Assembly: GCA_947594595.1 (NCBI GenBank)
Contig: CANQEE010000002.1
Location: forward strand, 1 to 45,539
From: an uncultured Bacilli bacterium
GTDB taxonomy: Bacteria > Bacillota_I > Bacilli_A > RF39 > UBA660
Length of the DNA: 45,539 nucleotides
Direction: 5' to 3'
Part shown: one piece after another, positions 5,470 to 45,457 of the stretch
How positions within the stretch are numbered: the stretch's first letter is position 1
How the letters are laid out: every line of letters starts with the position of its first letter
Position numbers and translations under genes: made by a program
The notes under the pieces: generated by a model
Told to the model about the DNA's origin: nothing
Seen by the model: the letters and a program-made list of their open reading frames with translations, nothing else
The model's database searches: none

Positions 5470-6347
5470 TAAAGCTCTTCGTTTAAAACATCTAAATTTT
5501 TTTCTAAAAGAGATAAATAATCTTCTCCTGCTTTTCGCTCTTCATCTGTTAATATTTTCATAGAATGTATATTTTTTGTTTCTAATGAATTTGAATTGAT
5601 ATCTAAAATTTTTTGACTTGCCTCATTATTTTCTTCTTCTTCAAACTTAAATAGTTTTGTAATTTCTTTTTGATTGATTAAAGATTGAATCTCACTTCTT
5701 TCTTTTTCTGCTGTTTTTTCATTGATTACATAAACTTTCAAACCATATTTTTCTAAAAATTTAAGACTTTCTGTAGAAGATAAAATGCATTTGTGTTTTG
5801 CATTTTCAATGGATAAGCGAATTTTTGCATCTAATTCAGAAATAGAAACTTTTAATGCTTCATACTTTTCATCGATTTCTTTCTTTAAATATGCATTTTC
5901 AATGTATTCTTTTAAACTTAATCTGACATTTTGGGCCATCATTAACATAAAAGAAGGATCTAGCCAAACAGCATCTGTTTCATAACTTGTTTCTAATACA
6001 TAAGAACTATCAATAATTTTTAAAGCACTGTTATAATCTAAAAGTTCAATTGCTAAGTTTCTTTCTCGTTCTACCAATCCTGTATAAATAAACAAATCTT
6101 TTTGAGCATCTTCTTGCTTTGTTTTTTTTGTTGGCCTATATTTTTCAACATTCACTCCATCTGGATAAATAGAAGTAATTGTTGAATGATCTTTATAAAG
6201 ATTTTCAATAATATATGAATTTGGATAATTGGTTGTTACAATTTCAATCTCTTCCATATCATCTCTTTTACAACCACAAAGGCAAGTGATTGCAAGGACT
6301 ATGATAAATAATTGAACCCCTAATTTTCTTCGTTTCAAATCTCTCAT
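5460..6347 (-). CDS. ZnuA/AdcA-fold (cluster A-I) solute-binding lipoprotein with degenerate metal site
   Basis: Lipobox LCGC after a signal peptide. IVTTNYP, DAVWLDP and [10 protein letters not shown] align with the family blocks IVTTxYP, DPHxWLxP and HxAFxYLxxxYGL, but the His positions are substituted. No adjacent ABC permease or ATPase. Confidence 0.7.
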
Positions 6348-6577
6348 CCTTTCTTTCTAGGAACTGGATCATATCCATAAGAACCCAATGGATTACATTT
6401 TAAAATACGTTTGATTGCAAGGATACTTCCTTTACATGCACCATGAATTTCAATAGCTTCCATCGCATAATTAGAACATGTTGGAATGTGCCTACAAGCT
6501 TTATGCCATGGGCCTGGAATCTTTTGATAAATATGAATCAGTCCAATCAAAATTTTCTTCATTCTTTCATCATCCAT
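6344..6577 (-). CDS. yidD: membrane protein insertion efficiency factor YidD
   Basis: LIHIYQK...[39 protein letters not shown] is the YidD signature. 4-nt overlap with the downstream lipoprotein gene. The start may instead be the internal Met at 6562. Confidence 0.9.
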
Positions 6578-6684
6578 ACTTATTTTACTATATTTTTTTA
6601 CGCTTTACAATTGTGAGTTTTGTTTTTCATAAATTTATAAAAAATTTAAAAGATTACAAAAATATAGAAATTTATAAAAATCTA

Positions 6685-6693
6685 TGTTATAAT
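6685..6693 (+). promoter_or_regulatory. extended -10 element upstream of typA
   Basis: TGtTATAAT about 30 nt upstream of the typA ATG. No convincing -35. Confidence 0.4.
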
Positions 6694-6722
6694 CAGGTGC
6701 GTGATTGAAAGAAGTGAAAAAA

Positions 6723-8540
6723 ATGAAAAAAAGAAATATTGCGATCATCGCTCATGTAGATCATGGAAAGACAACTCTTGTCGATGAGATTTTAAAAACG
6801 AGTGGGATGTTTCGCGAAAATGAAGATGTTGCCAATATTTCAATGGATTCAAATGCGCTTGAAAAAGAACGTGGGATTACCATTTTAGCAAAAACTACAG
6901 CACTTGATTATAAAGGTTATCGCATCAATATTTTAGACACACCAGGGCATGCTGATTTTGGTGGTGAAGTTGAGAGAATTATGAACTTAGTCGATGGAGT
7001 TCTTTTGGTGGTAGACGCATATGAAGGAACAATGCCTCAGACTCGATTTGTTTTAAAAAAAGCTCTTGCTTCGGGTGTTAAACCAATTGTAGTAATCAAT
7101 AAGGTAGATAAACCAAGTGCAAGATGTAGCCAGGTACTTGATGAAGTTCTTGATTTATTTATTGAATTAGGAGCAGATGAAGAACAGCTTGATTTTCCAG
7201 TTGTGTATGCAAGTGCTTTAAATGGAACTTGTAGCCTGGAAGAAAGTCTAGCAAGTCAAACTCCTGGATTTACAGAACTTTTAGATTTGATTATCTCTTC
7301 TATTCCAGCTCCACAAGGTGAAGAAAATGCTCCTTTACAATTTCAACCAGCTCTTTTAGATTACAATGAATTTGTAGGGCGTATTGGAATTGGAAAAGTT
7401 CACAATGGAACTATGAAAGTAGGGCAGACAGTTACTTGTATTCGTCTAGATGGAAAAGAGAAAACATTTAGAATTCAAAAATTGTTTGGATATTATGGAT
7501 ATAATCGAATTGAAGTAGAAAGTGCGACAGCTGGGGATATTGTAGCCATTGCAGGACTTCCTGATATTTCCGTAGGGGAAACTATTTGTGAACAAGGAAA
7601 TTTGCATCCACTTCCCATTTTGCATATTGATGAGCCTACTTTACAAATGACTTTTGGTGCTAACACTTCTCCGTTTGTTGGAAAAGATGGAAAGATTGTA
7701 ACTGCAAGAAAAATTGAAGAACGTCTTTATAAGGAAACTCAAAAAGATGTTAGTTTACGAGTAGAACCTTATACCAATGAATCTTTTATTGTTTCTGGTC
7801 GTGGAGAACTTCATTTAAGTATTTTAATTGAAAATATGAGAAGAGAAGGGTTTGAATTAGAAGTATCTAAACCTCAAGTAATCATTAAAGAAGAAAATGG
7901 AGTAAAGATGGAACCATGGGAAGATTTGCAAATAGAAGTTCCAGAAGAGGTTATGGGGACTGTGATTGAACAGTTAGGTCTTCGTGGAGCTATTATGGAT
8001 AATATGACGAACTTTGAAGGACAAGTAAGACTTAATTATACCATCCCATCTCGTGGTTTAATTGGATTTTCAACAGATTTTATGACTATGACAAAAGGAT
8101 ATGGTATTATCAACCATACATTTAAAGAGTATCGTCCTTATGAAAAAGTAGAAATTGGAGAAAGAAAATTAGGAGTTTTAGTTTCTATGGAAAATGGATC
8201 AGCGACAGCTTATTCTATTGGAAACTTAGAAGATCGTGGGATTATGTTTATAGAGCCTGGGTGTGAAGTTTATGAAGGAATGATTCTTGGGGAATGTAAT
8301 CGTGAAAATGATTTGGCCGTCAATGTTGTTAAAGGAAAGAATTTAACCAATGTTCGTGCAGCAGGAAGTGATCATACAGTTGTGTTAAAAAGGCCTCGTC
8401 CTATTACATTAGAGTATGCTCTTGATTATATTAACTCTGATGAATTAGTAGAAGTAACCCCTAATTTTATTCGTCTTAGAAAAAAAATTCTTAATACAGA
8501 AGAACGAAAAAAAGCAGATGCTAAAAAAAATAAAGCCTAG
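6723..8540 (+). CDS. typA: translational GTPase TypA/BipA
   Basis: [18 protein letters not shown] (G1), DTPGHADF (G3), NKVD (G4), EF-G-like domains. ATG at 6723 is preferred over the track's TTG at 6705 because family N-termini start just before [15 protein letters not shown]. Confidence 0.95.
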
Positions 8541-8552
8541 AGGGCTTTTTTT
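8532..8552. terminator. short hairpin plus T run between convergent typA and tetR-like gene
   Basis: aaagcc / ggcttt stem overlapping the typA stop, followed by TTTTTT. Confidence 0.5.
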
Positions 8553-9102
8553 AGTGAAATATCTTTGTAAAGAAAAGTTTTATATTTTCCAATAATTCAT
8601 CAAGGGAATAGGGACTTTCTTTTCTAAAATATTTTATAATTTCCATTAAAGTTCCATTCATAAAGAAGGAAATAGCAAGATCTAGATAGGGAGTTTTATA
8701 ATTATTTTTTAAAGCTTCATAGATTTTTTGACTTGCAAATTCTTTTAGTTTATTCAAAAATAAGAGAGATTCATCTGCTGCTAATAACAAGCAATAAGTA
8801 TTTTCATTTTCTTTTAAACAAGAGAAAATATTATCAAAGTAGTCTAATACATCTGATTTGGAATAGAGCCTTAATTCCTTATTACAAAGAAGTTCAATGG
8901 TTTGTAATTGATATTCTTGTGCAACCTGATAAAGATTATCATAATGCGTGTAAAAAGTACTTCTCGTAATTTGTGCTCGCTGAACTAATTCTGTAACAGT
9001 GATTTTTTCTAATTGTTTTTTTTCATGGATTAAAGTTGCAAAAGTTTTCTTAATCAAATCTCTTGTTTTGAGGGAAGAAGAATTTAGACATTGTACTTTC
9101 AT
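8551..9102 (-). CDS. TetR/AcrR-family transcriptional regulator
   Basis: HTH segment ITVTELVQRAQITRSTFYTHYDNLYQV. Start set to the Met at 9102 (SD AAAGGAG 6 nt upstream). The track's longer 9192 start would read through the palindromic operator. Confidence 0.88.
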   Translation of the reverse strand: MKVQCLNSSSLKTRDLIKKTFATLIHEKKQLEKITVTELVQRAQITRSTFYTHYDNLYQVAQEYQLQTIELLCNKELRLYSKSDVLDYFDNIFSCLKENENTYCLLLAADESLLFLNKLKEFASQKIYEALKNNYKTPYLDLAISFFMNGTLMEIIKYFRKESPYSLDELLENIKLFFTKIFH

Positions 9103-29335: not shown

Positions 29336-30181
29336 ATGAAAAAATATTATACAGCTAAATATGACCGGGTCTTTAAAACAATATTTTGTAATGAAGATGA
29401 TACATATTTGATGAGAGAGTTTTTAACAAGAATCTTAGAAAGAAAAGTAGAGGAAGTTCAATTTTTAAGGAATGAAATAGGAATAGAGAATGTAGAAGAA
29501 CAAGTAAAGACAGTAGATGTTTTTGCACTCGTAGATGGAGTCTATTTACATATAGAGATGAATACAGGAAGAGGAGAAATTATTCATGCAAGGAACTTCA
29601 CTTATTTTACGTCTTTGTATAATAAGAAGACAGTACGAGGGGAGAAGATTGATTTAAAGAGTGAATTTATTCATATAGATTTTACATATGGACTAGGAAG
29701 GGGAAGGAAAGTAAAAGAAGAATATAAGGTGATGACAAAAGAGGGGAAGGAGTATGTGAAGAACATAAAAATGATCGAATATAACATGGACAGGGTAAAG
29801 GAATTCTGGTATGATAAAGACGAAGAGAAAATAAAGAAATATAAACATTTAATTATGTTAGATTTAGAGAAAGAGGAACTAAGGAAGATAGGAAGAGGAG
29901 AAGAATTTATGGAGAGATTTGAGAAGAAAATAAATCAATTAAATGAAGATGAAACGTTTCAGAGTTGGATGAGTCGAGAAGAAGATATGAGGATTGTAGC
30001 GAATACAGAGAAAGCGATGGCATATGAAGAGGGGGAAAAGCAAGGAATTCAACAAGGATCTATTTCAAAAATGGAAGAAATTGCCAAAAATATGTTAAAA
30101 AAGAAAACAGATCTTTCTTTTATAGCAGAAGTAACAGGCCTTACAGTACAAGAAATTAAGAAACTTTCTAAAATATCATAA
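29336..30181 (+). CDS. Rpn-family recombination-promoting nuclease / putative transposase (PD-(D/E)XK)
   Basis: N-terminal YDRVFKTIF, then VDVFA...YLHIEMN (D...E-x-N/Q nuclease core). C-terminal HTH-like tail FIAEVTGLTVQEIKKL. Confidence 0.75.
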   Translation: MKKYYTAKYDRVFKTIFCNEDDTYLMREFLTRILERKVEEVQFLRNEIGIENVEEQVKTVDVFALVDGVYLHIEMNTGRGEIIHARNFTYFTSLYNKKTVRGEKIDLKSEFIHIDFTYGLGRGRKVKEEYKVMTKEGKEYVKNIKMIEYNMDRVKEFWYDKDEEKIKKYKHLIMLDLEKEELRKIGRGEEFMERFEKKINQLNEDETFQSWMSREEDMRIVANTEKAMAYEEGEKQGIQQGSISKMEEIAKNMLKKKTDLSFIAEVTGLTVQEIKKLSKIS

Positions 30182-31120: not shown

Positions 31121-31708
31121 ATGACAAGAGTAAAAAACAGTGTAACAACAAAAGCACGTCATAAAAAGGTATTAAAACAAGCCAAAGGATACTTTGGAAG
31201 TAAACATAGACTTTATAAAACAGCAAAGGAACAATTGATGCATTCTGGACAATATGCATTTAGAGATCGTAAACAAAAGAAAAGAGATTTTCGAAAATTA
31301 TGGATTACAAGAATCAATGCAGCTTGTCGTGAAGAAGGGATCAGTTATTCTAGATTTATAGAAGGACTTACAAAGGCAGGAGTTGAAATCAATCGTAAGA
31401 TGTTAGCAGAAATTGCAATTCGTGATAAAGAAGCCTTTAAAGATTTAGTTCGTATCTCAAAGGAAGGAAGAGAAGGAAAAGTATCTCCAACTAAGCAAGA
31501 AGGAAAGCAAGAAGTTACGATTGCTTCTTCTTCTAAGAAAGTGGATGAGAAAAAAGAAATTTCACCAAAGAAAAAAGAAGAAAAGAAGGAAGAAACAACA
31601 GATCTTAGCACAATGACGGTTGCTGCATTAAAAGAACTTGCCAAAGAAAAAGGAATTAAAGGTGCAAGTACGATGAAAAAAGCAGATTTATTGGAAGCTT
31701 TAAAATAA
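31121..31708 (+). CDS. rplT: 50S ribosomal protein L20 with ~75-aa C-terminal extension ending in a HeH (Rho_N/SAP-like) module
   Basis: L20 core [26 protein letters not shown]...[11 protein letters not shown] is complete by about aa 118. It is followed by a K/E-rich linker and [35 protein letters not shown]. Confidence 0.93.
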
Positions 31709-31800: not shown

Positions 31801-32745
31801 ATGACAGTAGTATCAATGAGTTATTTATTAGAAGCAGGAGTACATTTTGGACATCAAAAAAGAAGATGGAATCCAAAAATGAAAGAATACATTTATACAA
31901 CAAGAGATGACATTTATATTATTGATTTACAAAAAACAGCTAAAAAAATGGAAGAGGCCTATGAAGCTATTCGAGAAATTGCAGAAGCAGGAGGAAAATT
32001 CCTATTTGTAGGAACAAAAAAACAAGCACAAGAAGCCGCAGAAGAAAATGCAGTTCGTACAAATATGTATTTTGTTAACGAACGTTGGTTAGGGGGAACT
32101 CTTACAAATTTTAAGACAATTCGTTCTAGAATTCGTAGAATGGAACAAATTGAAAAAATGGAAGAGGATGGAACTTTTGATTTACTTCCTAAGAAAGAAG
32201 TAATTCAAATTCGTAAAGAGTATGATAAATTAAATAAGAATTTACGTGGAATTCGTGAGATGAAGAAAACTCCACAAGCATTGATTCTTGTAGATCCAAA
32301 AAAGGAAGAAATTGCAATTAAAGAAGCAAGAATTCTTGGGATTCCTGTATTTGGTATTGTAGATACAAATTGTGATCCAGATATGGTAGATTATGTAATT
32401 CCAGGAAATGATGATGCCGTTCGTGCTGTAAAACTTATGATAGGGGCTCTTACAAATGCTATTGCAGAAGTAAATGGAAATGAAATTATAGATTATATAA
32501 CAGAAGAAGATAAAACAAAGGAACCAAAAAAAGAAAAAGTTGAAAAAACAAAAACAGAAGAGAAAGAAGTGCAAGAAGTTCCTGTTGAAGTAGTAGAAGA
32601 GAAAAAAGAGAAAAACTCTTCTAAAAAAGAGAGTGTAGATCTTACAACGCTTTCTCTAACAGAATTGAAGGAAAAAGCAAAAGAAGTAGGAATTAAGGGA
32701 TACTCTAAAATGAAGAAAGCAGAACTAATTGAAGCATTAAAGTAA
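31801..32745 (+). CDS. rpsB: 30S ribosomal protein S2 with ~70-aa C-terminal extension ending in a HeH (Rho_N/SAP-like) module
   Basis: [19 protein letters not shown]..., [20 protein letters not shown]. Then a K/E-rich linker and [35 protein letters not shown]. Confidence 0.93.
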
Positions 32746-33686: not shown

Positions 33687-34253
33687 ATGAGGAAGTACGT
33701 TCTTTTTTCTCTTCTGTTTTTTCTTCTTTTAACAGCTTGTTCTGTTAAAAAAGTAGAAGAAGTAACAGATGGAGAAAAATTTGCAATGGAATATGATATT
33801 CAAAAAGAAAATCCGTTTGTCTATTTAAATACAAAAGAAATGCTTGAATTTGTTCAAACAGGAAGTGGAATTCTCTATTTTGGATTTCCTGAATGTCCTT
33901 GGTGTAAAGAAGCAATTTCTATATTCAATGAAGTGTTGGATGAGAAAAACGTAGAGAAAGTTTACTATTATAATCCTAAAAAAATTCGAGAAGAAAATAC
34001 AAAATCTTATCAAAAGTTGATTCAATTATTAGAAGAAGAACTCATTGAAGATGAAGAAAAGCACCCAAGATTATATGTTCCTGATATTTATGTATTTAAA
34101 GATGGAAAAGTAATAGATCATAACAATCGTCTTTCTGTTGTCTCTGGAAATATGGAAGAATATTTAACTTTAGAAAAAAGAAAAACAATTAAAAAAGAGT
34201 TTACAAATTTAGTTGCAAAATATACGGTAAAAGAATGTGAGACTTGTAATTAA
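33687..34253 (+). CDS. thioredoxin-fold lipoprotein (CPWC active site)
   Basis: Signal peptide with lipobox LLTAC. FGFPECPWCKEA (CxxC at 33894-33905). Confidence 0.75.
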   Translation: MRKYVLFSLLFFLLLTACSVKKVEEVTDGEKFAMEYDIQKENPFVYLNTKEMLEFVQTGSGILYFGFPECPWCKEAISIFNEVLDEKNVEKVYYYNPKKIREENTKSYQKLIQLLEEELIEDEEKHPRLYVPDIYVFKDGKVIDHNNRLSVVSGNMEEYLTLEKRKTIKKEFTNLVAKYTVKECETCN

Positions 34254-34286
34254 CATTCTTTTTCTATCTATAGGAGGAAAAAGTGT

Positions 34287-35093
34287 ATGAAAAGAATTCC
34301 AAACATTCAAATTACGGATGCCATGTTAAGAAAATACTTTAATCGACATTTTTTAAAAATTGATGGTGGAGAATCAAGAGTTTTCTTTTCTTTTTCTTTA
34401 AAAAGGAAAGGTGTTGTAAGAAAAATATTTTCTCGAGGTGGAAGTTATGCGAGTAAGACGAAGGAAGAATTTTCTCAAATTTGTGAAAATAAATATGAAA
34501 AAATTCAAAGAATTTCACAAAAAAACCTTCCTTTAAATGAAGTAGAAATACTTTCTACAATCAGTGACCAAAACGGCTGCTTTATAGGATATGATATGGT
34601 ATGGGATCCTTTTACAAAATCTCTTTTTGATAGAAACAATGAAGAAAAACAGTTCAAAAATAGAGAAAAAATATTTTATTTTGATCAAATTCCTGCTCTT
34701 TTAGAAGAATGTCATGAACAAGGAATCGTTTATGGAGATCTTCGAACTCGTAACATTTTAATCAATAAAAAAACAGGAAAAGTGAGTCTTTGTGATTGGG
34801 ATAATACACAAGTAGATGATTGTATTGTAGATTTAATAGAACATCACCTACATCCATTTCAAAAGAAAGATTATACTTTTCCTAAATCAGTAGATGCATA
34901 TATGTATAATTTGCTTTTGATTGAAGAGTTAACTGGTTTTTCTAGTGAAGATGAGTTGCTTTTAAAATTAAAAGAGAAAGATACATCCTTTTTTCAAGAA
35001 GAAGCCATTCCATTGTTAGAAAAGATGAAATTTGGAAGAAATAAAGGAGAATATGATGGAACATATATGCAACCTTATATAAAGAGAAAGTAA
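34287..35093 (+). CDS. atypical protein-kinase-like / APH-ChoK-like phosphotransferase-fold protein
   Basis: Catalytic-loop-like IVYGDLRTRNILI (34725-34763) and metal-binding-like CDWDN (DWD 34794-34802). Possible G-loop DGGESRVF and Lys in VVRKIF. Confidence 0.55.
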   Translation: MKRIPNIQITDAMLRKYFNRHFLKIDGGESRVFFSFSLKRKGVVRKIFSRGGSYASKTKEEFSQICENKYEKIQRISQKNLPLNEVEILSTISDQNGCFIGYDMVWDPFTKSLFDRNNEEKQFKNREKIFYFDQIPALLEECHEQGIVYGDLRTRNILINKKTGKVSLCDWDNTQVDDCIVDLIEHHLHPFQKKDYTFPKSVDAYMYNLLLIEELTGFSSEDELLLKLKEKDTSFFQEEAIPLLEKMKFGRNKGEYDGTYMQPYIKRK

Positions 35094-37914: not shown

Positions 37915-38217
37915 ATGATTACTGTCAAGGTTGAAAAGAAAAATCAAATTTTTACAAGTGTACAAATATTAGGACATGCGATGTATGATGAATATGGAAA
38001 AGATATTGTTTGTAGCGCTGTTTCTAGTATTGTAATTACAACGGTCAATGCTATTTTATCGTTTGATAATAAAAGTATTTCTTATTTGTCAAGTCAAAAA
38101 GGTCTTTCTATTAAAATTCAAAAAGAAGATCGAATTACACAAACTTTAATTCGAAATATGATTCGAATGTTAAAGGAGTTAGAAACAAAATATAAAGATT
38201 ATATTCTTGTAAAGTAA
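37915..38217 (+). CDS. prp: ribosomal-processing cysteine protease Prp
   Basis: [20 protein letters not shown] (His/Cys dyad context). Located between rplU and rpmA. Confidence 0.9.
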
Positions 38218-38230
38218 GGAGGAAGAGAAA

Positions 38231-38521
38231 ATGAAATTTTTAAAATTAGAAATTCAGTTCTTCGCACATAAAAAAGGACAAAGTTCTACTTCCAATGGAC
38301 GTGATTCTGCAGGACGTAGATTAGGTGCGAAAGCAAGTGATGGAGAATTTGTAACTGCTGGAAGTATTCTTTATCGTCAAAGAGGAACGAAAATATATCC
38401 TGGAAACAATGCCAAACGTGGAAATGATGATACTATTTATGCAACTGTAGATGGTATTGTAAAATTTGAGCGTGTTGGTAAAGATAAAAAATGTGCCTCT
38501 GTCTATCCAGTCGCTGAATAA
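38231..38521 (+). CDS. rpmA: 50S ribosomal protein L27 with cleavable N-terminal propeptide
   Basis: [11 protein letters not shown]|[15 protein letters not shown]. The FF/A junction matches the Prp cleavage motif, and mature L27 starts at AHKKG (nt 38264). Confidence 0.94.
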
Positions 38522-38551
38522 AGAATCTAGCAATAGATTCTTTTTACTTTT
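38521..38551 (+). terminator. terminator of the rplU operon
   Basis: aagaatcta-gcaa-tagattctt, a 9-bp perfect stem, followed by a T-rich tail. Confidence 0.75.
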
Positions 38552-38567
38552 TTAAAAGGGGGATTTT

Positions 38568-39407
38568 ATGGAATCTTTGAAAAAATTAGAATTATGTACT
38601 CGGTTAAAAATAGCAAAGTATCGTTTGTTGAATCGAGAGCAAAATGAGGATTCTCTTTTTGAAGCATTTATACAGATTAAAGAGAAGGAACTTTTCAAAC
38701 AAAAGGATATTCAACAATTGAGACATCTTTATATTTTGTATTTAGAAAAAATGCGTGATCTATATCTTTTTCATGAAATTTCAAATCCACTTGCCATTGC
38801 AACTCTTTTTTCAACAACTCTAGAATTTTTTTCTAAAACAGGAGAATTTAAAAAATTAAAATATTTTTCTACTCCCAATTCATATCTTAGTTTATTAGGA
38901 CCTAGAATAATGCAAGGAAGTGGAGTTTGTCGACATGTTGCCTCTTTATTTTATGATTTTGGAAAACTTTTTCCTCTTTCTGTGTCTCTTTTTTCTTGTA
39001 CAGAAGGATCCCTAGAAGAAACAAAGGAAGAAGAAATTAAAAATAGTCCTCCCAATCATTTGGCAAATTTAATACTAGTGAATGGAAAAAAGATGGTCGT
39101 AGATTGTTTTAATGGAACAAATTATCTGTTTCAGACAAAAGAAAAATTGGTAGATGCATTTGATCCTTCGCAAATCTTATGGATTCAAGAAAATAAAATT
39201 TTTCCACAAGATAAAGATTTACTTTTGAATCCTTCTCTATCCAAAGAAGAATTTCAAGAAGAAATTGAAAACTTAAAAAACTCTCTTCCCATAGTAAGAG
39301 CTGTTTTCAATATGTTTCATTTACATCAAAGTTTTAAAAATGAACTGGAAAAGATCAGTCAAATTGAAGAAAACTATTCCAACTATGTCTATAAAAAAAG
39401 AAAGTAG
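38568..39407 (+). CDS. transglutaminase-like (papain-fold) cysteine peptidase candidate
   Basis: Ordered Cys-His-Asp contexts typical of the transglutaminase-like core: GSGVCRHVASLF (Cys 38928-38930), PPNHLANLILV (His 39057-39059), KKMVVDCFNG (Asp 39102-39104). Confidence 0.5.
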   Translation: MESLKKLELCTRLKIAKYRLLNREQNEDSLFEAFIQIKEKELFKQKDIQQLRHLYILYLEKMRDLYLFHEISNPLAIATLFSTTLEFFSKTGEFKKLKYFSTPNSYLSLLGPRIMQGSGVCRHVASLFYDFGKLFPLSVSLFSCTEGSLEETKEEEIKNSPPNHLANLILVNGKKMVVDCFNGTNYLFQTKEKLVDAFDPSQILWIQENKIFPQDKDLLLNPSLSKEEFQEEIENLKNSLPIVRAVFNMFHLHQSFKNELEKISQIEENYSNYVYKKRK

Positions 39408-39464
39408 AAGAACTAAAACAGTTTTAAATTCTATAACTAGATTAAAGGAAGAAAGGGGGATGAT

Positions 39465-40546
39465 ATGTATTATTGTTTTTGTGCAAAGAAAATTTCAAAA
39501 GAACGTGTTCAAAGAGAAATTGATCGTGCAATTCAAGAAAATTCTTTTCTTTATTATGATTCGAAAAAACAAGAATTTTTAGATGAGAAGGACCAAGTGA
39601 TAGACATTACTAATTGTGAAGTGATGCCAATTAGTAATGTTTTACAATTAAAAGAAATGATTGTTGCTTTAGAAAAGAAAGGGGCAAAAATTCCGAATAC
39701 ATGGGAAGATTTGAAAAAAATAGAAATGTGGTACCAGTATATAGAACCTAAAAGGAAAATGGTTGCCTTTCAAGGTGCTATGCTAGAAGATGTAGCTTTT
39801 AAAACTTATTTACTAGAACTTTTTTTGGAGGAAGAAGAACTTTTCCTAAAGACTGTCAAAAAAGATTTTAGTGGCACCGTTACTTTAAAAGATTTATTGG
39901 ACCAAGAAAGTGATTTAAGAAAAGCTTTTTCTTACCATGCAGAAGATGAGTTTCTGCTTTCCAAAAAAGTAAAGTTAGATCAGGATGAGTTAGGGAAAAA
40001 AGAATATCGTATTTTTGTAAAAGAAGGGGAAATTTTGAATATTTCTAGGTATTTAGATAGACCTATCATCAAATTCCAAAAGCTGTCTTAGACTATGCAA
40101 ATTCTATTTTAGAAACACTTCCAGAAGAATTTCCAAAGACATTTACATTCGATGTTTTCTCGTATGAAAATATTCTAGATATTGTGGAGTTCAATCCATT
40201 AGAAGGTTCTGGGAAATATTTATATAATAGTGTTTTTGAAAAAAGTAGTGATTTGCTTCATGAAGAAATAACAAAGGTTCCATTAGAGAGAAAAACAGAG
40301 GCTTTAAGTTTTGAAAGAAAAGAACAAGACCTTACTGCTTCTACTTTAGAACATGTTAAGAATACCTTTGCGAAAGACCTTAGAGATATTTCTATGTTTG
40401 GAGAAAGACAAACGGGTTACTACCATGTATTTGGCTTACCTAAACCGAAAGGAGCACATATTTCTCTAACAGAGCTTCTTAAAGATTGGGAAAAAGTAAA
40501 AGAAGATGAGAATTTCTGTAAAAAATTATCCAAAAAGAAGGAATGA
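39465..40546 (+). pseudogene. ATP-grasp-fold ligase (DUF4343/R2K-like) interrupted by a single -1 frame change
   Basis: Frame 0 (39465-40091) carries LFLKTVKKDFSG and KEYRIFVKEGEILNISRY. The frame open from 40061 continues HQIPKAVLDYANSILETLPEEFPKTFTFDVFSYENILDIVEFNPLEGSG, the end of the ATP-grasp core. The track splits this into 39465..40091 and 40184..40546. Confidence 0.6.
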
Positions 40547-40584: not shown

Positions 40585-41859
40585 ATGTTTGTCGATGAAG
40601 TAAATTTAAAAGTAATAGCAGGAAGTGGGGGCGATGGCTGTACTGCTTTTCGACGGGAAAAATATGTGGCTTTAGGAGGACCTTATGGAGGAAATGGTGG
40701 ACGAGGTTCTGATATTTATTTCGTAGTTGATACAGGTCTTCATACACTTCTTGATTTACGTTATCAAAAGTTAATTCAAGGAAAAAAAGGAGAAAATGGA
40801 AAAGGTAAGAATCAACATGGGAAAAGTGCAGAAGATCTTTTTATTAAAGTTCCCCAAGGAACTGTTGTGACTGATTTAGATACAGGATTGATTTTGGCTG
40901 ATTTAAAAGAAAAAAATTCTAAAGCACTGATTGCTAAAGGAGGACGAGGTGGAAGAGGAAATACTGCTTTTAAAACGCATGAGAATACAGCACCCAATTT
41001 TTCAGAGAATGGAGAACCAGGAGAAGAAAGAAATTTAAAAATAGAATTAAAACTTTTGGCAGATGTAGGATTGGTAGGATTTCCAAGTGTAGGAAAAAGT
41101 ACGATTCTCTCGAAAGTTTCTCAAGCAAAACCTAAAATTGCCGCTTATCCTTTTACAACATTAACTCCTAATCTTGGAGTTGTCAAAGCAACGAATGGAA
41201 ATAGTTTTGTTCTAGCAGATTTACCAGGACTTATTGAAGGAGCTAGTCAAGGACAAGGAGTAGGAGATCAATTTTTAAGACATATAGAAAGAACTAAAAT
41301 TCTTCTTCATGTCATTGATATGTCAGGAAGTGATGGAAGAGATCCAATAGAAGATTATCAAAAAATCAATCATGAATTAGAAACTTTTAACCCAAAACTT
41401 ATGAAAAGAAAGCAAGTCATTCTTGCCAATAAAATGGATCTTCCAAAAGCCAAAGAAAATTTAAAAGTTTTTCAAAAAAAATATCCAGATCTAAAGGTGT
41501 TTTCTATTTCAGCAATTACGGGAAAAGGATTGCAAGAAGTAATCGATTATTTGGACCTTCTTCTTCAAACAACGCAAGAGGAAGAACTTTTTGAAAAATC
41601 CTCTTTTGAGAGTCATGTACTTTATACTTTTCAAGAAGAAAAACCATATACCATTCTTAAGGAAGATGGCGGATATGCAATTTTAGGAGAGAAAATTGAA
41701 AAATTATTTAAAATGACAAAATTTTCAAGTGAGGAAGCAATTTATCGATTTGCAAATAAACTTAGAAAAATGGGAATTGATGAAGAATTAGAAAAAATGG
41801 GAATTCAAGACGGAGATATGGTTCGTATTTTGGATTATTATTTTGAATATCATAAATAA
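40585..41859 (+). CDS. obg: GTPase Obg/CgtA
   Basis: MFVDEVNLKVIAGSGGDGC..FRREKY (Obg fold), GFPSVGKST (G1), DLPGLIEGA (G3), NKMD (G4), and a C-terminal OCT-like domain. Confidence 0.95.
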   Translation: MFVDEVNLKVIAGSGGDGCTAFRREKYVALGGPYGGNGGRGSDIYFVVDTGLHTLLDLRYQKLIQGKKGENGKGKNQHGKSAEDLFIKVPQGTVVTDLDTGLILADLKEKNSKALIAKGGRGGRGNTAFKTHENTAPNFSENGEPGEERNLKIELKLLADVGLVGFPSVGKSTILSKVSQAKPKIAAYPFTTLTPNLGVVKATNGNSFVLADLPGLIEGASQGQGVGDQFLRHIERTKILLHVIDMSGSDGRDPIEDYQKINHELETFNPKLMKRKQVILANKMDLPKAKENLKVFQKKYPDLKVFSISAITGKGLQEVIDYLDLLLQTTQEEELFEKSSFESHVLYTFQEEKPYTILKEDGGYAILGEKIEKLFKMTKFSSEEAIYRFANKLRKMGIDEELEKMGIQDGDMVRILDYYFEYHK

Positions 41860-41887
41860 AAAGAGGTTAGCTTGCCTCTTCTTTTTC
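41857..41887. terminator. hairpin flanked by A and T runs between convergent obg and the DUF192 gene
   Basis: aagagg / cctctt stem with aaataaaa upstream and cttttt downstream. Overlaps the last codons of the minus-strand gene. Confidence 0.45.
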
Positions 41888-42217
41888 AAATAAAACATTT
41901 AATTTTTTTCCTACTTTTAATTTTTCACAACAACCAAGAGGAAGTTCAAAAGTATAGTAGACCTTTTTTTTAGGAAAAATAATTTTTTCACTACGGAAAT
42001 GAGAATAAAGATATAAAATAGTATAATTTTTATCTGTCATAACAATATCGATAGGTTGACACATCATATAGGTATGAATACTTCTGCAATGGGGGTAACA
42101 AAGTCCTGTTTCAATAGGTTCTAATACAAATAGAAAACCTTTTAAACGGCGCCAAAAAGTATTAGCTACTTCAATTTCAATTTTCTTGTTTCCAATTTTT
42201 AAATACATTTTCTTCAC
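41867..42217 (-). CDS. DUF192-family protein
   Basis: VANTFWRRLKGFLF.......GLCYPHCRSIHTYMMCQPIDIVMTD matches the DUF192 pattern (A.t...r..GLm...Gm.f..c.siHt.gM.fp.Dvvf.d). Confidence 0.8.
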   Translation of the reverse strand: MKKMYLKIGNKKIEIEVANTFWRRLKGFLFVLEPIETGLCYPHCRSIHTYMMCQPIDIVMTDKNYTILYLYSHFRSEKIIFPKKKVYYTFELPLGCCEKLKVGKKLNVLFEKEEAS

Positions 42218-42225
42218 CTAATAAA

Positions 42226-42254
42226 ACTATACCAAAAAATAGAGGAAATGACAA
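42226..42254 (-). promoter_or_regulatory. sigma-A-type promoter for the DUF192 gene
   Basis: Minus strand: TTGTCA - 17 nt - TGgTATAGT. Confidence 0.55.
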
Positions 42255-42277
42255 AATGTAGGAAAAAGATGATTGGT

Positions 42278-42306
42278 TTGTTTTTTCTACTTTTCCATGA
42301 TAGAAT
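42278..42306 (+). promoter_or_regulatory. sigma-A-type promoter for rnc
   Basis: TTGTTT - 17 nt - TGaTAGAAT. Confidence 0.5.
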
Positions 42307-42402
42307 GATATTGGCTCAATTAGAAAAGATAAATGATAGAAAATCGATCCATGTATTTTGTAAAAGGGAGGTGTAATTTGAGTTTTTTTACTCAACGTTA
42401 AA

Positions 42403-43074
42403 ATGAAAGAATTGTTTCAAAAATTAAAAATAAAACCAAAAAATATGGAACTTTATGAAACAGCCTTTTCTCATTCATCTTACGCAAATGAACATAAAAA
42501 GAAAAAAGATTATGAGCGACTTGAATTTTTAGGAGATGCTGTTTTAGATTTGGTAGTAGGAGAATATCTATATCATCAAAATACAGAAGATGAAGGAAAA
42601 CTTACAAAAATAAGGGCAAGCTATGTATGCGAAAATGCTTTATTTGTTTATGCAAGTGATTTAGGATTACAAAAATATATACGAGTAGGACATGGAGAAG
42701 AAAACCATGGTGGAAAGTATAAAAAGGCAATTGTTGCAGATATTTTTGAAGCACTAACAGGTGCAATTTACTTAGATTTAGGATTTGCAACTGCAAGAAA
42801 ATTTTTACTTTCTACTATTGTTCCTTATATAAAAGATGAAAAAATTTGTTTTTTCTTAGATTATAAGTCTGCATTACAAGAAGCAGTTCAGACAAAAAGT
42901 AAGAGTTTAGAATATCAAGTGATTCAAGAAGAAGGACCTAGTCATAATAAGACATTTACAGTAGAAGTAGAAGTAGATGGAATTGTTTTAGGAACAGGAA
43001 CAGGATCAAGTAAAAAAGAAGCTGAGCAGGAAGCTGCCAAATCTGCGCTTTCAAAAAATCCAAATTTCATTTGA
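42403..43074 (+). CDS. rnc: ribonuclease III
   Basis: AFSHSSYANE, signature ERLEFLGDAVLDLVV, and a C-terminal dsRBD (GPSHNKTFTVEV...GSSKKEAEQEAAK). Confidence 0.95.
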   Translation: MKELFQKLKIKPKNMELYETAFSHSSYANEHKKKKDYERLEFLGDAVLDLVVGEYLYHQNTEDEGKLTKIRASYVCENALFVYASDLGLQKYIRVGHGEENHGGKYKKAIVADIFEALTGAIYLDLGFATARKFLLSTIVPYIKDEKICFFLDYKSALQEAVQTKSKSLEYQVIQEEGPSHNKTFTVEVEVDGIVLGTGTGSSKKEAEQEAAKSALSKNPNFI

Positions 43075-43099
43075 AAAAAAGAGTGAATTATGCTATAAT
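43071..43099 (+). promoter_or_regulatory. sigma-A-type promoter for rnj
   Basis: TTGAAA (overlapping the rnc stop) - 17 nt - TGcTATAAT. Confidence 0.6.
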
Positions 43100-43145
43100 G
43101 AATACACTTTTAAAACGAATAGAAAATTAAAAGAAAGGAGTCTTT

Positions 43146-44801
43146 ATGAGTAAAATTAACATATTTAGTTTAGGCGGTCTCAATGAAAATGGGAAAAATA
43201 TGTATATTGTCGAAGTAGACAAAGATATTTTTGTTTTCGATGCTGGATTAAAATATGATAATGATCGACCTCTTGGAATTGATTATATTATTCCGAATTT
43301 CGATTATTTAATTAAAAATCAAAAACGAATTAAAGGTATCTTTTTAACACATGGACATGAAGGAAATATGGGAGCCGTTCCTGATTTATTAGAAAGTTTG
43401 CCTAATTTACATATATATGGAACAAAATTAACTCTTTCTCTTTTAAAACAGGATTTAAAAGGAGAAAGAGACTATACAAAAAATTTAAAAGAAATTCGAC
43501 CTCATTCTAAAATTTCATTTGGGAAAAATATGGTTTTTCCAATTCAAGTCACTCATTCTATTCCAGATGCTGTTTGCTATGTTTTATATACCAAAGATGG
43601 AGCGATTGTATATACAGGGGATTTTGTATTTGATCATACCATGATGGGAGCTTATCATACTGATATTGGAAAATTAGCCTATGTTGGGAAACAAGGAGTT
43701 CTCTGTCTTCTTTGTGAATCTATGTATGCAGAAAGAAGAGGACATACAAGTCCTAATAATCGAGTATCTTCTTTTATTCGAGAAATCTTATCAAAGAATC
43801 CAAATCGAATTATTGCAACCGTTTTTCCCGCTCATTTTTATAGAATTCAAGAAATTTTTAACGAAGTATCTAAAACTCATAGAAAGATTGTTATTATGGG
43901 GAAAGGATTACAAACTACCCTTTTAAATGCGATTGAGCAAGGATATTTACAAATTGATAAAAATGTGATTGGGGATTTGGTTAATTTAAATGATAAAAAT
44001 GCTGTTGTTTTGATTTCAGATGAAAAAGAAAAACCTTTTGCAAACTTAGAAAGAATTATTAAAGGCTTTGATAAATTTATTAAATTAAAAGAAACAGATA
44101 CTATTTTTATTACAGAACCTGCTTATGAAGGAATTGAGAGAAGACTTGCTCTTGTGATGGATGAAATTGCTATGTTAGGAGTTAATGCAATTAGTCTTTC
44201 TAGTAAAAAACATCTTCTTCATCATGCGTCAAGAGAAGATTTAATGTTAATGTTAAATTTAATGCAGCCTAAATATTTCTTTCCTGTAAAAGGAGAATAT
44301 AGACAACAATACGCCAATGCAACCATTGCAGAAGAGCTTGGAATTCCAAAAGAAAATATCTTGCTAAAACAAAACGGAGATATTGCTACTTTTGTAAATG
44401 GTGAATTGGTTCCAAATTCAAATGCACATATTGATGTAGATGAAATTTTAATTGATGGAAATTCTAGTGGAGACATTGGAAATTTGGTATTAAAAGACCG
44501 CGAAATGCTTGGTGAAAATGGAATTGTAATTATTTCTTGTACACTTTCAAAAGAAACGAAAGAAATTATAGCAGGTCCTGAAATTTTAACGCGAGGATTC
44601 ATTTATGTAAAAGAACATCAAGATGTATTAGAAGAGACAAAAAATTTAGCAACCGAAGTTATTTTAGAAAATGTTTCAAAAGAAGAAAAACGAATTGATT
44701 ATTCAAAAATAAAAAATGAAGTTCGCGAAATACTTGGAAAATACTATTATAAAATGACAGAATCTAAACCTATGATTATTACAGTGATTCAAGAAATTTA
44801 A
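43146..44801 (+). CDS. ribonuclease J family protein with degenerate metallo-beta-lactamase motifs (J2-like)
   Basis: Full-length beta-CASP RNase J architecture (FSLGGLNENGKNMY, VTHSIPDA, YTGDF). However, motif II reads THGHEGNMG instead of HxHxDH, HHASR replaces H.SGH, and PVKGEY replaces P.HGE. Confidence 0.88.
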   Translation: MSKINIFSLGGLNENGKNMYIVEVDKDIFVFDAGLKYDNDRPLGIDYIIPNFDYLIKNQKRIKGIFLTHGHEGNMGAVPDLLESLPNLHIYGTKLTLSLLKQDLKGERDYTKNLKEIRPHSKISFGKNMVFPIQVTHSIPDAVCYVLYTKDGAIVYTGDFVFDHTMMGAYHTDIGKLAYVGKQGVLCLLCESMYAERRGHTSPNNRVSSFIREILSKNPNRIIATVFPAHFYRIQEIFNEVSKTHRKIVIMGKGLQTTLLNAIEQGYLQIDKNVIGDLVNLNDKNAVVLISDEKEKPFANLERIIKGFDKFIKLKETDTIFITEPAYEGIERRLALVMDEIAMLGVNAISLSSKKHLLHHASREDLMLMLNLMQPKYFFPVKGEYRQQYANATIAEELGIPKENILLKQNGDIATFVNGELVPNSNAHIDVDEILIDGNSSGDIGNLVLKDREMLGENGIVIISCTLSKETKEIIAGPEILTRGFIYVKEHQDVLEETKNLATEVILENVSKEEKRIDYSKIKNEVREILGKYYYKMTESKPMIITVIQEI

Positions 44802-44827
44802 AATGTAGACTGAATCTACATTTTTTG
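44802..44827 (+). terminator. terminator of rnj
   Basis: atgtaga-ctgaa-tctacat followed by TTTTT. Confidence 0.7.
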
Positions 44828-44890
44828 ATTGAAAAATTACTAGAATTTTTTCATAAATTATAGTATAATAAGCCAAAAAGGAGAAAGACT

Positions 44891-45457
44891 ATGCTAAAGA
44901 CCAAAGATATTTTAGATGAAAAAGATAAACGATTAAGATTAGTAAGCAAAGAAGTTGTTTTTCCTTTATCAAAAGAAGATAAGAAACAAATTAAATTGAT
45001 GGTTGAATACTTAAGAAATAGTCAAATTGAAGAGAAAGCAGAGAAGTATGATTTAAGACCAGGGATGGGAATGGCAGCGATTCAATTAGGTATTGCAAAA
45101 CGATATATTACGATTGTAAATGAAGTGGATTATGAAGAAGAGACTGGAAAAAGAACTTTTGAAACTTATGTTGTAATTAACCCTAAAATAATAAGTAATT
45201 CAGAAGAAATAATTTATGTAGAGATGGGTGAAGGCTGTTTAAGTGTCAATAGAGAAGTTGAGGGAATTGTTCCACGATATGCAAGATGTACTATAGAAGG
45301 ATATGACGTAGATGGAAATAAGATTCGTATTCGTGCAAGAGAAGAAGTATCTATTGCTTTTCAGCATGAAATTGATCATTTGGATGGAATCTTATTTGTT
45401 GATAAAATTGATAAAAAAAATCCTTATAAAAATAAAGATAAATATCGAGCTATTTAA
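44891..45457 (+). CDS. def: peptide deformylase
   Basis: GMGMAAIQLG, EGCLS, and QHEIDHLDG motifs. Confidence 0.95.
   Translation: MLKTKDILDEKDKRLRLVSKEVVFPLSKEDKKQIKLMVEYLRNSQIEEKAEKYDLRPGMGMAAIQLGIAKRYITIVNEVDYEEETGKRTFETYVVINPKIISNSEEIIYVEMGEGCLSVNREVEGIVPRYARCTIEGYDVDGNKIRIRAREEVSIAFQHEIDHLDGILFVDKIDKKNPYKNKDKYRAI

Follow-up and report, generated by a model that had tools for sequence, protein, structure and literature searches.

The interval between rpmA, the gene for ribosomal protein L27, and the GTPase gene obg is probably a permissive, variable slot that, in the genome analyzed here, is occupied by two passenger genes placed independently of each other rather than by a two-component system. 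We analyzed a 45.5-kb stretch of DNA from an uncultured Bacilli bacterium (contig CANQEE010000002.1, positions 1–45,539; hereafter, the window). The two genes, here called gene A [38568–39407, + strand; an intact open reading frame (ORF) of 279 amino acids (aa)] and gene B (+ strand; two ORFs in different frames, 39465–40091 and 40184–40546), had been interpreted in a preliminary description as a peptidase and an ATP-grasp ligase acting together. As a conserved pair, they did not hold up: the adjacency was absent at 12 ATP-grasp loci and 13 gene A-family loci. Hidden Markov model (HMM) scans of all loci found gene A and gene B together in the window only, and in the loci sampled their homologues did not co-occur outside this genome. 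The significance is mainly cautionary. Here, genes whose domain types have a published precedent for partnership would stand side by side in a variable slot by chance, one of the two in broken form.

Neighborhoods of Gene A and Gene B Relatives

We compiled ATP-grasp loci from nine contigs, reached by looking up six proteins, and from three metagenome contigs of 1.3–4.5 kb, giving 12 loci with nine distinct proteins. In L002 and L006–L009, the ATP-grasp gene lies between a PHP-domain gene upstream and, downstream, a gene for a 509–510-aa protein without a recorded Pfam family. It follows a Peptidase_S51 gene in L003–L005 and an ABC transporter gene in L001, and it precedes Lactamase_B, DUF3006, and M23 genes in L001, L003, and L005. 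Its surroundings on the three metagenome contigs were no different from those at the other loci. At none of the 12 does the ATP-grasp gene lie near rpmA or obg, and HMM scans detected no gene A relative there.

At the S51 loci, the ATP-grasp gene starts 4 nucleotides (nt) after the S51 gene (the two genes occupy 5283–7119 in L003, 4548–6384 in L004, and 1330–3166 in L005). Peptidase_S51 is the cyanophycinase/dipeptidase E family, and the arrangement may reflect a ligase/peptidase coupling with a peptidase other than gene A.

Relatives of gene A were examined at 13 loci outside the window (seven distinct proteins from five species), none of which has an ATP-grasp gene beside the gene A relative. 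L013, which represents the same species as L011 and L012, carries three tandem copies between rpmA and obg (295, 308, and 302 aa; 6001–8755) that are 30–33% identical to each other. L010 has a copy directly before obg, and in L098 (with L099 and L100), the order is rpmA, a 205-aa lipoprotein-like gene, a 262-aa gene A copy, and obg. More distant relatives sit between recD2 and an AI-2E transporter gene (L094–L097) or beside uvrB (L101). Two candidates for hidden family members were rejected. The 205-aa ORF of L098, considered as an ATP-grasp remnant, is signal-peptide/lipoprotein-like and matched no HMM, and three 304- to 325-aa genes upstream of the gene A relative in L101, considered as paralogues, showed no HMM or BLAST relation to it.

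Proteins flanking the slot are 74–93% identical between the window and L013 or L098 (full-length Obg, 80%; L27, 88–92%; EF-P, 93%; DUF192, 74%), and the Obg fragment of L010 is 88% identical to the window Obg. Gene A copies are 30–38% identical to one another, both within and between genomes. Set against the strong conservation of the genes beside it, the gene A family diverges unusually fast, and its duplication is unusually fast as well; it is this combination of rapid divergence and tandem duplication inside an otherwise conserved ribosomal-gene neighborhood that makes the family of interest.

Variability of the rpmA–obg Slot

To compare the slot across relatives, we used the window Obg as bait and examined 80 GTDB species representatives with Obg proteins 59–77% identical to it; the nearest named relative is Candidatus Onthousia, of the class Bacilli. 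Upstream of obg, rpmA was found in 44 of the 80. The gap between the two genes is shorter than 200 bp in 20 of these 44 and longer in the other 24; most of these 24 carry between one and five genes with no relation to gene A or gene B. This cargo includes TrmB-like methyltransferases (eight), HAD hydrolases, proteins with Hpt and response-regulator domains, an ABC ATPase, an Rce1-like protease, and others. Both the suggestion that the gap is a variable slot and the view that its two genes lie outside the conserved backbone are borne out by the 44 relatives, which show the rpmA–obg interval to be a hot spot for cargo genes in uncultured gut Bacilli.

In Bacillus subtilis, the gene order is rplU-prp(ysxB)-rpmA-spo0B-obg. 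The window is similar in that the same interval holds lineage-specific cargo after a partial terminator, but this cargo is unrelated to the Spo0B phosphotransferase. In L051 (3944–5959) and L085 (4046–5986), the slot holds an ORF of 646–671 aa, and an alignment-level scan found two slot proteins with Hpt and response-regulator receiver domains, which we infer to be the products of these ORFs. With that assignment, they would be closer analogues of spo0B than any gene in the window.

The persistence of gene A in the slot could have a functional cause. Gene A alone might be tied to the L21–Prp–L27/Obg module of large-subunit assembly, for example by acylating or trimming L27 or another substrate. 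One to three gene A copies lie exactly in the slot in four species-level genomes (the window, L013, L010, and L098), and the 47-nt gap that separates rpmA from gene A in the window has no room for a separate promoter. Since none fits between the rpmA hairpin and gene A, transcripts of the ribosomal operon probably read through into gene A. However, the four genomes are close relatives (Obg 80–93% identical), and the shared position may be simple inheritance. Distant family members are found elsewhere, at recD2/AI-2E transporter and uvrB sites, and none of the 80 other relatives has a gene A-family gene within ∼6 kb of obg. Moreover, the low identity of the slot copies (30–38%, vs. 74–93% for their neighbors) is unlike that of a conserved ribosome-assembly partner. 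We regard an assembly role as very improbable; inherited synteny explains the linkage of gene A to rpmA and obg as well as function does. A ribosome-directed role for the pair had been proposed from its closeness to Prp and L27. That proposal is undercut by the neighborhoods, where an ATP-grasp gene stands near rpmA only in the window and the linkage of gene A is confined to a narrow clade, and no evidence ties gene A or gene B to the ribosome. If gene A did act on the ribosome or Obg, it would be a new kind of ribosome-associated thiol enzyme.

Gene A: Family, Fold, and Nearest Relatives

The gene A protein has no Pfam match at E ≤ 1 and no significant NCBIfam match. A k-mer-indexed search with gene A recovered only gene A itself, and the same kind of search with the family profile recovered three proteins. 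When 1.84 billion cluster representatives were scanned exhaustively with HMMER, 38 family proteins emerged at E ≤ 1e-3, seven of them at E ≤ 1e-10. The family is rare and undescribed, absent from both Pfam and NCBIfam. In an alignment of 37 sequences, only five columns are invariant (Y55, G117, C121, H164, and D179), with G111, R122, D130, and S89 nearly so. The Cys, His, and Asp picked out by eye in the preliminary description correspond to Cys121, His164, and Asp179; because these account for three of the five invariant columns, the motifs are not chance matches. The predicted catalytic core spans 38928–39104 on the + strand (Cys121 codon, 38928–38930; His164, 39057–39059; Asp179, 39102–39104).

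Some family members match Pfam models: Acetyltransf_2 in 2 of 37 (best E = 1.5e-5), DUF553 in one (8e-4), Transglut_core in 3 of 37 (best 0.011), and Tox-PLDMTX. We take these four to belong to one papain-like Pfam clan. The window protein has no predicted transmembrane or hydrophobic segment, and about a dozen relatives carry a moderately hydrophobic N-terminal segment before the conserved region.

To place the fold, we modeled gene A with AlphaFold using the family alignment (pLDDT 93, pTM 0.90). The model has four helices at its N terminus and four at its C terminus; Cys121 begins a helix, and a group of six β-strands bears His164 and Asp179. In a Foldseek search of the PDB, arylamine N-acetyltransferases (NATs) and the NAT-type amide synthase GdmF ranked first, followed by 3isr (a putative cysteine protease), PNGase, XPC, TglA, and PeiP, with overall probabilities of 0.9–1.0, E values of ∼1e-3 to 1e-2, and template modeling (TM) scores of ∼0.3. 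The NAT matches have probabilities of 0.98–1.0, E values of 1.5e-3 or weaker, and TM scores of 0.25–0.32 over ∼140–180 aligned columns. NAT-type acetyltransferases were again the top matches among viral structures (BFVD). Among solved structures, the family profile best matched NAT C of Bacillus anthracis (3lnb; E = 0.003), with the Cys, His, and Asp in register. An hhalign comparison with Escherichia coli NhoA was weak (E = 0.038) and placed C121, H164, and D179 on the Cys of GGYC, the His of RTH, and the Asp of IADVGFG. For YchA, a transglutaminase-like protein of E. coli, the alignment was limited to 17 columns around the Asp. Together, the profile, hhalign, and Foldseek results support a predicted placement of gene A in the transglutaminase/papain-like superfamily, closest to the NATs.

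Compared with NATs (PF00797; E. coli NhoA and B. anthracis NAT C), the gene A model has the same helical N-terminal part, the Cys at a helix N terminus, and β-strands bearing the His and Asp. The order of the triad is also that of NATs, with C121, H164, and D179 aligned to the triads of 3lnb and NhoA, and the NATs are the best matches of gene A by profile, hhalign, and Foldseek alike. His164 and Asp179 are 15 residues apart; this spacing and that from Cys to His presumably resemble those of NhoA. Unlike NATs, however, the window protein misses the PF00797 model, and the likeness extends over ∼140–180 residues only (TM ∼0.3). The C-terminal third of the model is all-helical, where NATs presumably carry an α/β lid, and the motif around the Cys is G-x-G-V-C-R-H rather than the R-G-G-Y-C of NhoA.

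Gene A also shares the Cys-His-Asp order of transglutaminase-like proteins (PF01841 and DUF553; PNGase, 3isr, PeiP, and TglA). The family consensus, G-V-C-R-H ... N-H ... D-x-T-N, presumably resembles the motifs typical of the transglutaminase core, G-x-C-x-x-F-A ... H ... D-P-T. Weak Pfam matches of this kind occur in a few family members, and PNGase, 3isr, TglA, PeiP, and XPC are among the lower Foldseek ranks. In contrast, the window protein itself misses these models, YchA aligned over its 17 columns, and the matches are weaker than those to NATs. The earlier label of a transglutaminase-like Cys peptidase is thus right as to fold class and triad but unsupported as to activity, the nearest relatives being acyl transferases; on these comparisons, acyl transfer would be at least as likely as amide hydrolysis.

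The gain here is a protein family so far unannotated, whose Cys-His-Asp triad is invariant, whose structure is predicted with confidence, and whose nearest known relatives are the NATs. We picture gene A as the lineage’s resident of the slot, downstream of the rpmA attenuator, encoding an intact and probably cytoplasmic thiol enzyme. By family resemblance, Cys121 would carry an acyl-thioester, and His164 and Asp179 would act as its charge relay. The enzyme would work either like a NAT, passing the acyl group on to an amine, or like a transglutaminase-like peptidase, cleaving an amide or isopeptide bond.

Gene B: an R2K.2-Type ATP-Grasp Gene with a Frameshift

As sequenced, gene B consists of a 5′ part in frame 0 (residues 1–198; 39465–40058), which covers a pre-ATP-grasp region and the first half of the ATP-grasp domain, and a 3′ part in frame 2 (40061–40546) with the second half and a C-terminal extension of ∼100 aa. 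A 208-aa fragment scored 28.4 bits against Pfam R2K_2 (PF18299; gathering cut-off 26.2). The repaired protein, translated with a provisional join, scored 39.2 bits (E = 8e-10, residues 122–252). Against R2K_3 (PF14243), gene B reached 24.0 bits, under the cut-off of that family and lower than its R2K_2 score. Of the earlier assignment as a DUF4343/R2K-like ATP-grasp protein, the R2K clade stands, with R2K_2 the better-scoring family; profile and Foldseek searches thus recovered both expected classes, gene B above the R2K_2 cut-off and gene A among transglutaminase/papain-like proteins. On these scores, gene B is classed as an R2K.2-family ATP-grasp gene.

A search with the repaired protein identified 18 intact homologues (349–392 aa, 41–51% identical, 94–100% query coverage), all uninterrupted at the position of the lesion, where the family motif reads N-I-S-R-x-x-D-x-T-Y-H-x-I-P. 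In gene B, frame 0 gives NISRYLD up to 40058 (D198), the bases AG at 40059–40060 are left as a two-base remnant of one codon, and frame 2 continues with TYHQIP from 40061. The lesion is a 1-nt deletion that removed one base of one codon, outside a homopolymer; it leads to a frame-0 stop at 40089–40091 and leaves the metal-binding half out of frame. We rejected a programmed frameshift, as there is no slippery heptamer at TAT TTA GAT AGA CCT and all 18 homologues are uninterrupted. When repaired exactly, gene B keeps all but six (I83L, M191L, V228T, P292A, Y306L, and K332H) of ∼95 invariant or near-invariant family positions. The lesion is either very recent or an assembly error, and we infer that it is biological.

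The residues expected of an ATP-grasp enzyme are present on both sides of the lesion. K129 (39849–39851) and K133 (39861–39863), in F-L-K129-T-V-K-K133-D-F, are invariant in the 18 homologues. Gene B also keeps E180-Y-R182, in the 5′ part, and D230 (40151–40153) and D239. The metal motif V-E242-F-N244-P (E242-F-N244 at 40187–40195) lies downstream of the frameshift and is invariant in the family. The best solved relative of the family profile was Cdc123 (E = 0.002). An AlphaFold model of P0003, a homologue 51% identical to gene B, had a pLDDT of 71 and matched Ddl (D-Ala-D-Ala ligase), RimK, LysX, PsnB, and Cdc123 in Foldseek (E = 7.5e-8 to 1e-5, probability 1.0), with low model confidence in the region equivalent to the conserved ∼100-aa extension of gene B.

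To our knowledge, no R2K.2 enzyme has a known substrate. The R2K clade was named for two conserved lysines in a strand of the RAGNYA domain and includes eukaryotic CDC123; its members are predicted to be protein-modifying ligases, with a standard E-x-N metal motif in R2K.2 and E-x-G-D in R2K.3 (Burroughs, Zhang and Aravind 2015, PMC4431377). Gene B is like R2K.2 in exceeding the Pfam cut-off, in its two invariant lysines and E-x-N motif, in the ATP-grasp fold predicted for P0003, in a pre-ATP-grasp region that diverges rapidly, and in having Cdc123 as its nearest solved sequence relative. It differs in its broken frame, in the conserved C-terminal extension of its subfamily, and in lacking linked R2K.3, GNAT, and ADP-ribosylglycohydrolase genes, which are contexts described in PMC4431377. 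Gene B would thus be a gene for an R2K.2 amide-bond ligase that occupies other chromosomal sites in relatives and this slot in the present genome only. The 1-nt deletion would inactivate it as sequenced by splitting the lysine-bearing ATP-binding half from the E-x-N metal half.

R2K.2 and R2K.3 proteins have been proposed to act in phage–host conflicts (PMC4431377), and gene B matches the phage family phrog_7313 (E = 8e-13). Gene A could accordingly be read as one of a diversifying conflict family (toxin/effector, immunity, or antiphage) that turns over in a hot spot, with the ATP-grasp gene as further cargo. The extreme divergence of gene A relative to its flanking genes, its tandem triplication in L013, the differing slot cargo between species, and the hydrophobic N-terminal segment in some relatives are in keeping with such a role. 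However, neither protein matches a PADLOC model, gene A had no tblastn match in phage or plasmid collections, and the ATP-grasp subfamily had no match in IMG/VR. No mobile-element genes flank the pair, its composition is native, and the other slot cargo is mostly housekeeping-like (methyltransferases and HAD hydrolases). We consider membership in a conflict family unlikely. The lack of PADLOC matches also led us to reject a known defense system, and we rejected a recent foreign origin of the pair on its native GC content and third-position GC content (GC3), the missing phage, plasmid, and IMG/VR matches, and the lack of adjacent mobile-element genes.

Weighing a Functional Pair

In its strongest form, the proposed cassette would be an eraser/writer pair acting on a ribosomal or other protein, the ATP-grasp enzyme adding amino acids and the Cys-His-Asp peptidase trimming them, and the frameshift would either be a sequencing artifact or mark a function lost very recently. 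In favor of this reading, gene B follows gene A closely on the same strand, strong ribosome-binding sites precede both, and apart from the single deletion, gene B retains essentially all family-invariant residues. There are precedents for ATP-grasp genes with transglutaminase-like genes (the Anbu operon, PMC6376114) and for predicted protein modification by R2K enzymes (PMC4431377), and in one lineage the ATP-grasp gene is coupled with a gene for an S51 peptidase. Nevertheless, the pair co-occurs at no examined locus beyond the window, and in three related species the slot holds gene A but no ATP-grasp gene. The sequenced gene B is interrupted by a deletion outside any homopolymer, and gene A is closer to acyl transferases than to peptidases. 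A functional pair is, in our judgment, very unlikely.

The precedent itself is real. The Anbu operon, reported by Iyer et al. 2009 and known to us as recounted in PMC6376114, joins ATP-grasp, α-E, transglutaminase-like, and Anbu genes. The window resembles it in that an ATP-grasp gene adjoins a gene of transglutaminase-like fold. It has no α-E or Anbu (proteasome-like) genes, however; only two genes lie between rpmA and obg, and the scanned flanks are housekeeping. The ATP-grasp protein of the window is of the R2K clade rather than glutathione-synthetase-like, and whereas gene order is conserved in the Anbu operon, gene A and gene B adjoin each other in this genome only. Because Anbu systems are defined by the conserved adjacency that is missing here, the reading as a pair is unsupported.

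A RimK-type modification of a ribosomal protein can be viewed similarly. RimK structures are among the general ATP-grasp fold matches of the P0003 model, and the one argument for such an activity would be the closeness of the ligase gene to rpmA, which is unique to this genome. A combined scheme, in which the placement of gene A reflects a functional tie to L27/Prp/Obg maturation (acylating or trimming a ribosomal protein or assembly factor, for instance) and the R2K.2 ligase is an occasional, now decayed partner that wrote the mark, seems to us extremely unlikely.

Several points weigh against independent placement of two passengers in a permissive slot. The neighborhood sample is small, with nine distinct ATP-grasp proteins and, from 38 gene A-family representatives, five species. 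If the frameshift is an assembly error, gene B is intact and cotranscribed with gene A (gaps of 57 and 38 nt, good ribosome-binding sites). The 4-nt spacing of the S51 and ATP-grasp genes in L003–L005 leaves room for a ligase/peptidase partnership with interchangeable peptidases. Finally, the structural matches of gene A are weak in absolute terms (E ∼1e-3, TM ∼0.3).

Gene Layout and Other Features of the Window

The window (29.8% GC) is a stretch of housekeeping chromosome with the gene order infC, rplT, rpsB, tsf, tig, rpmG, efp, rplU, prp, rpmA, gene A, gene B, obg, a DUF192 gene, rnc, rnj, and def. The slot is flanked upstream by the ORFs of rplU (L21; 37607–37909), prp (Prp protease; 37915–38217), and rpmA (38231–38521) and downstream by that of obg (40585–41859), all on the + strand. 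In L013 and L098, the orthologues of rplU, prp, and rpmA match Pfam Ribosomal_L21p, Peptidase_Prp, and Ribosomal_L27 and are 80–92% identical to the window proteins. From rpmA through gene A and gene B to obg, all on the + strand, the genes have good ribosome-binding sites and are separated by 47, 57, and 38 nt. Gene A and gene B resemble neighboring genes in GC and GC3, and no mobile-element genes flank the two. Rederiving the ORFs confirmed the coordinates and motifs that had been quoted for both genes.

At the 3′ end of rpmA, an RNA hairpin with a U-rich tail (38520–38553, + strand) has a 10-bp AT-rich stem, a GCAA loop, and a folding energy of −9.7 to −10 kcal/mol (z = −2). With fewer than three G-C pairs, it was missed by a consensus terminator scan. 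A comparable hairpin and U-run follow rpmA in several relatives, among them L013, L098, and L015. The element is a moderate intrinsic-terminator-like structure; the strong rplU-prp-rpmA terminator described before is only moderate on its energy (∼−9.7 kcal/mol), its z score of −2, and its absence from the consensus scan.

No Rfam family reached its gathering score anywhere in the 45.5-kb window, and despite the several ribosomal-protein operons, the scan showed no L20, L21, or other ribosomal leaders and no riboswitches. Between ruvX and infC lies a PDDEXK_2 gene (PD-(D/E)XK nuclease family transposase-like; 29336–30181, + strand; E = 1e-11), the sole mobile-element-like gene among the ORFs scanned (9268–36461 and 41867–45457). 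Further upstream, between a YfhO-like membrane protein gene and ruvX, a 2127-aa ORF (21630–28013, + strand) is rich in L, E, K, and S and has no Pfam match at E ≤ 1e-5.

Two ribosomal proteins of the window, L20 (195 aa; 31121–31708) and S2 (314 aa; 31801–32745), both carry, after a linker rich in K and E, a Rho_N (SAP-like) domain at the C terminus (E = 2e-9 in L20 and 4e-10 in S2), and their tails end nearly identically in ...LKE.AKE.GIKG.S.MKKA.L.EALK. The tsf–tig interval (33687–35093, + strand) contains two ORFs, one of 188 aa without a Pfam match and one of 268 aa that matches protein kinases only in part (E = 2e-10); in L013 and L098, a Pkinase-annotated gene lies directly upstream of tig.

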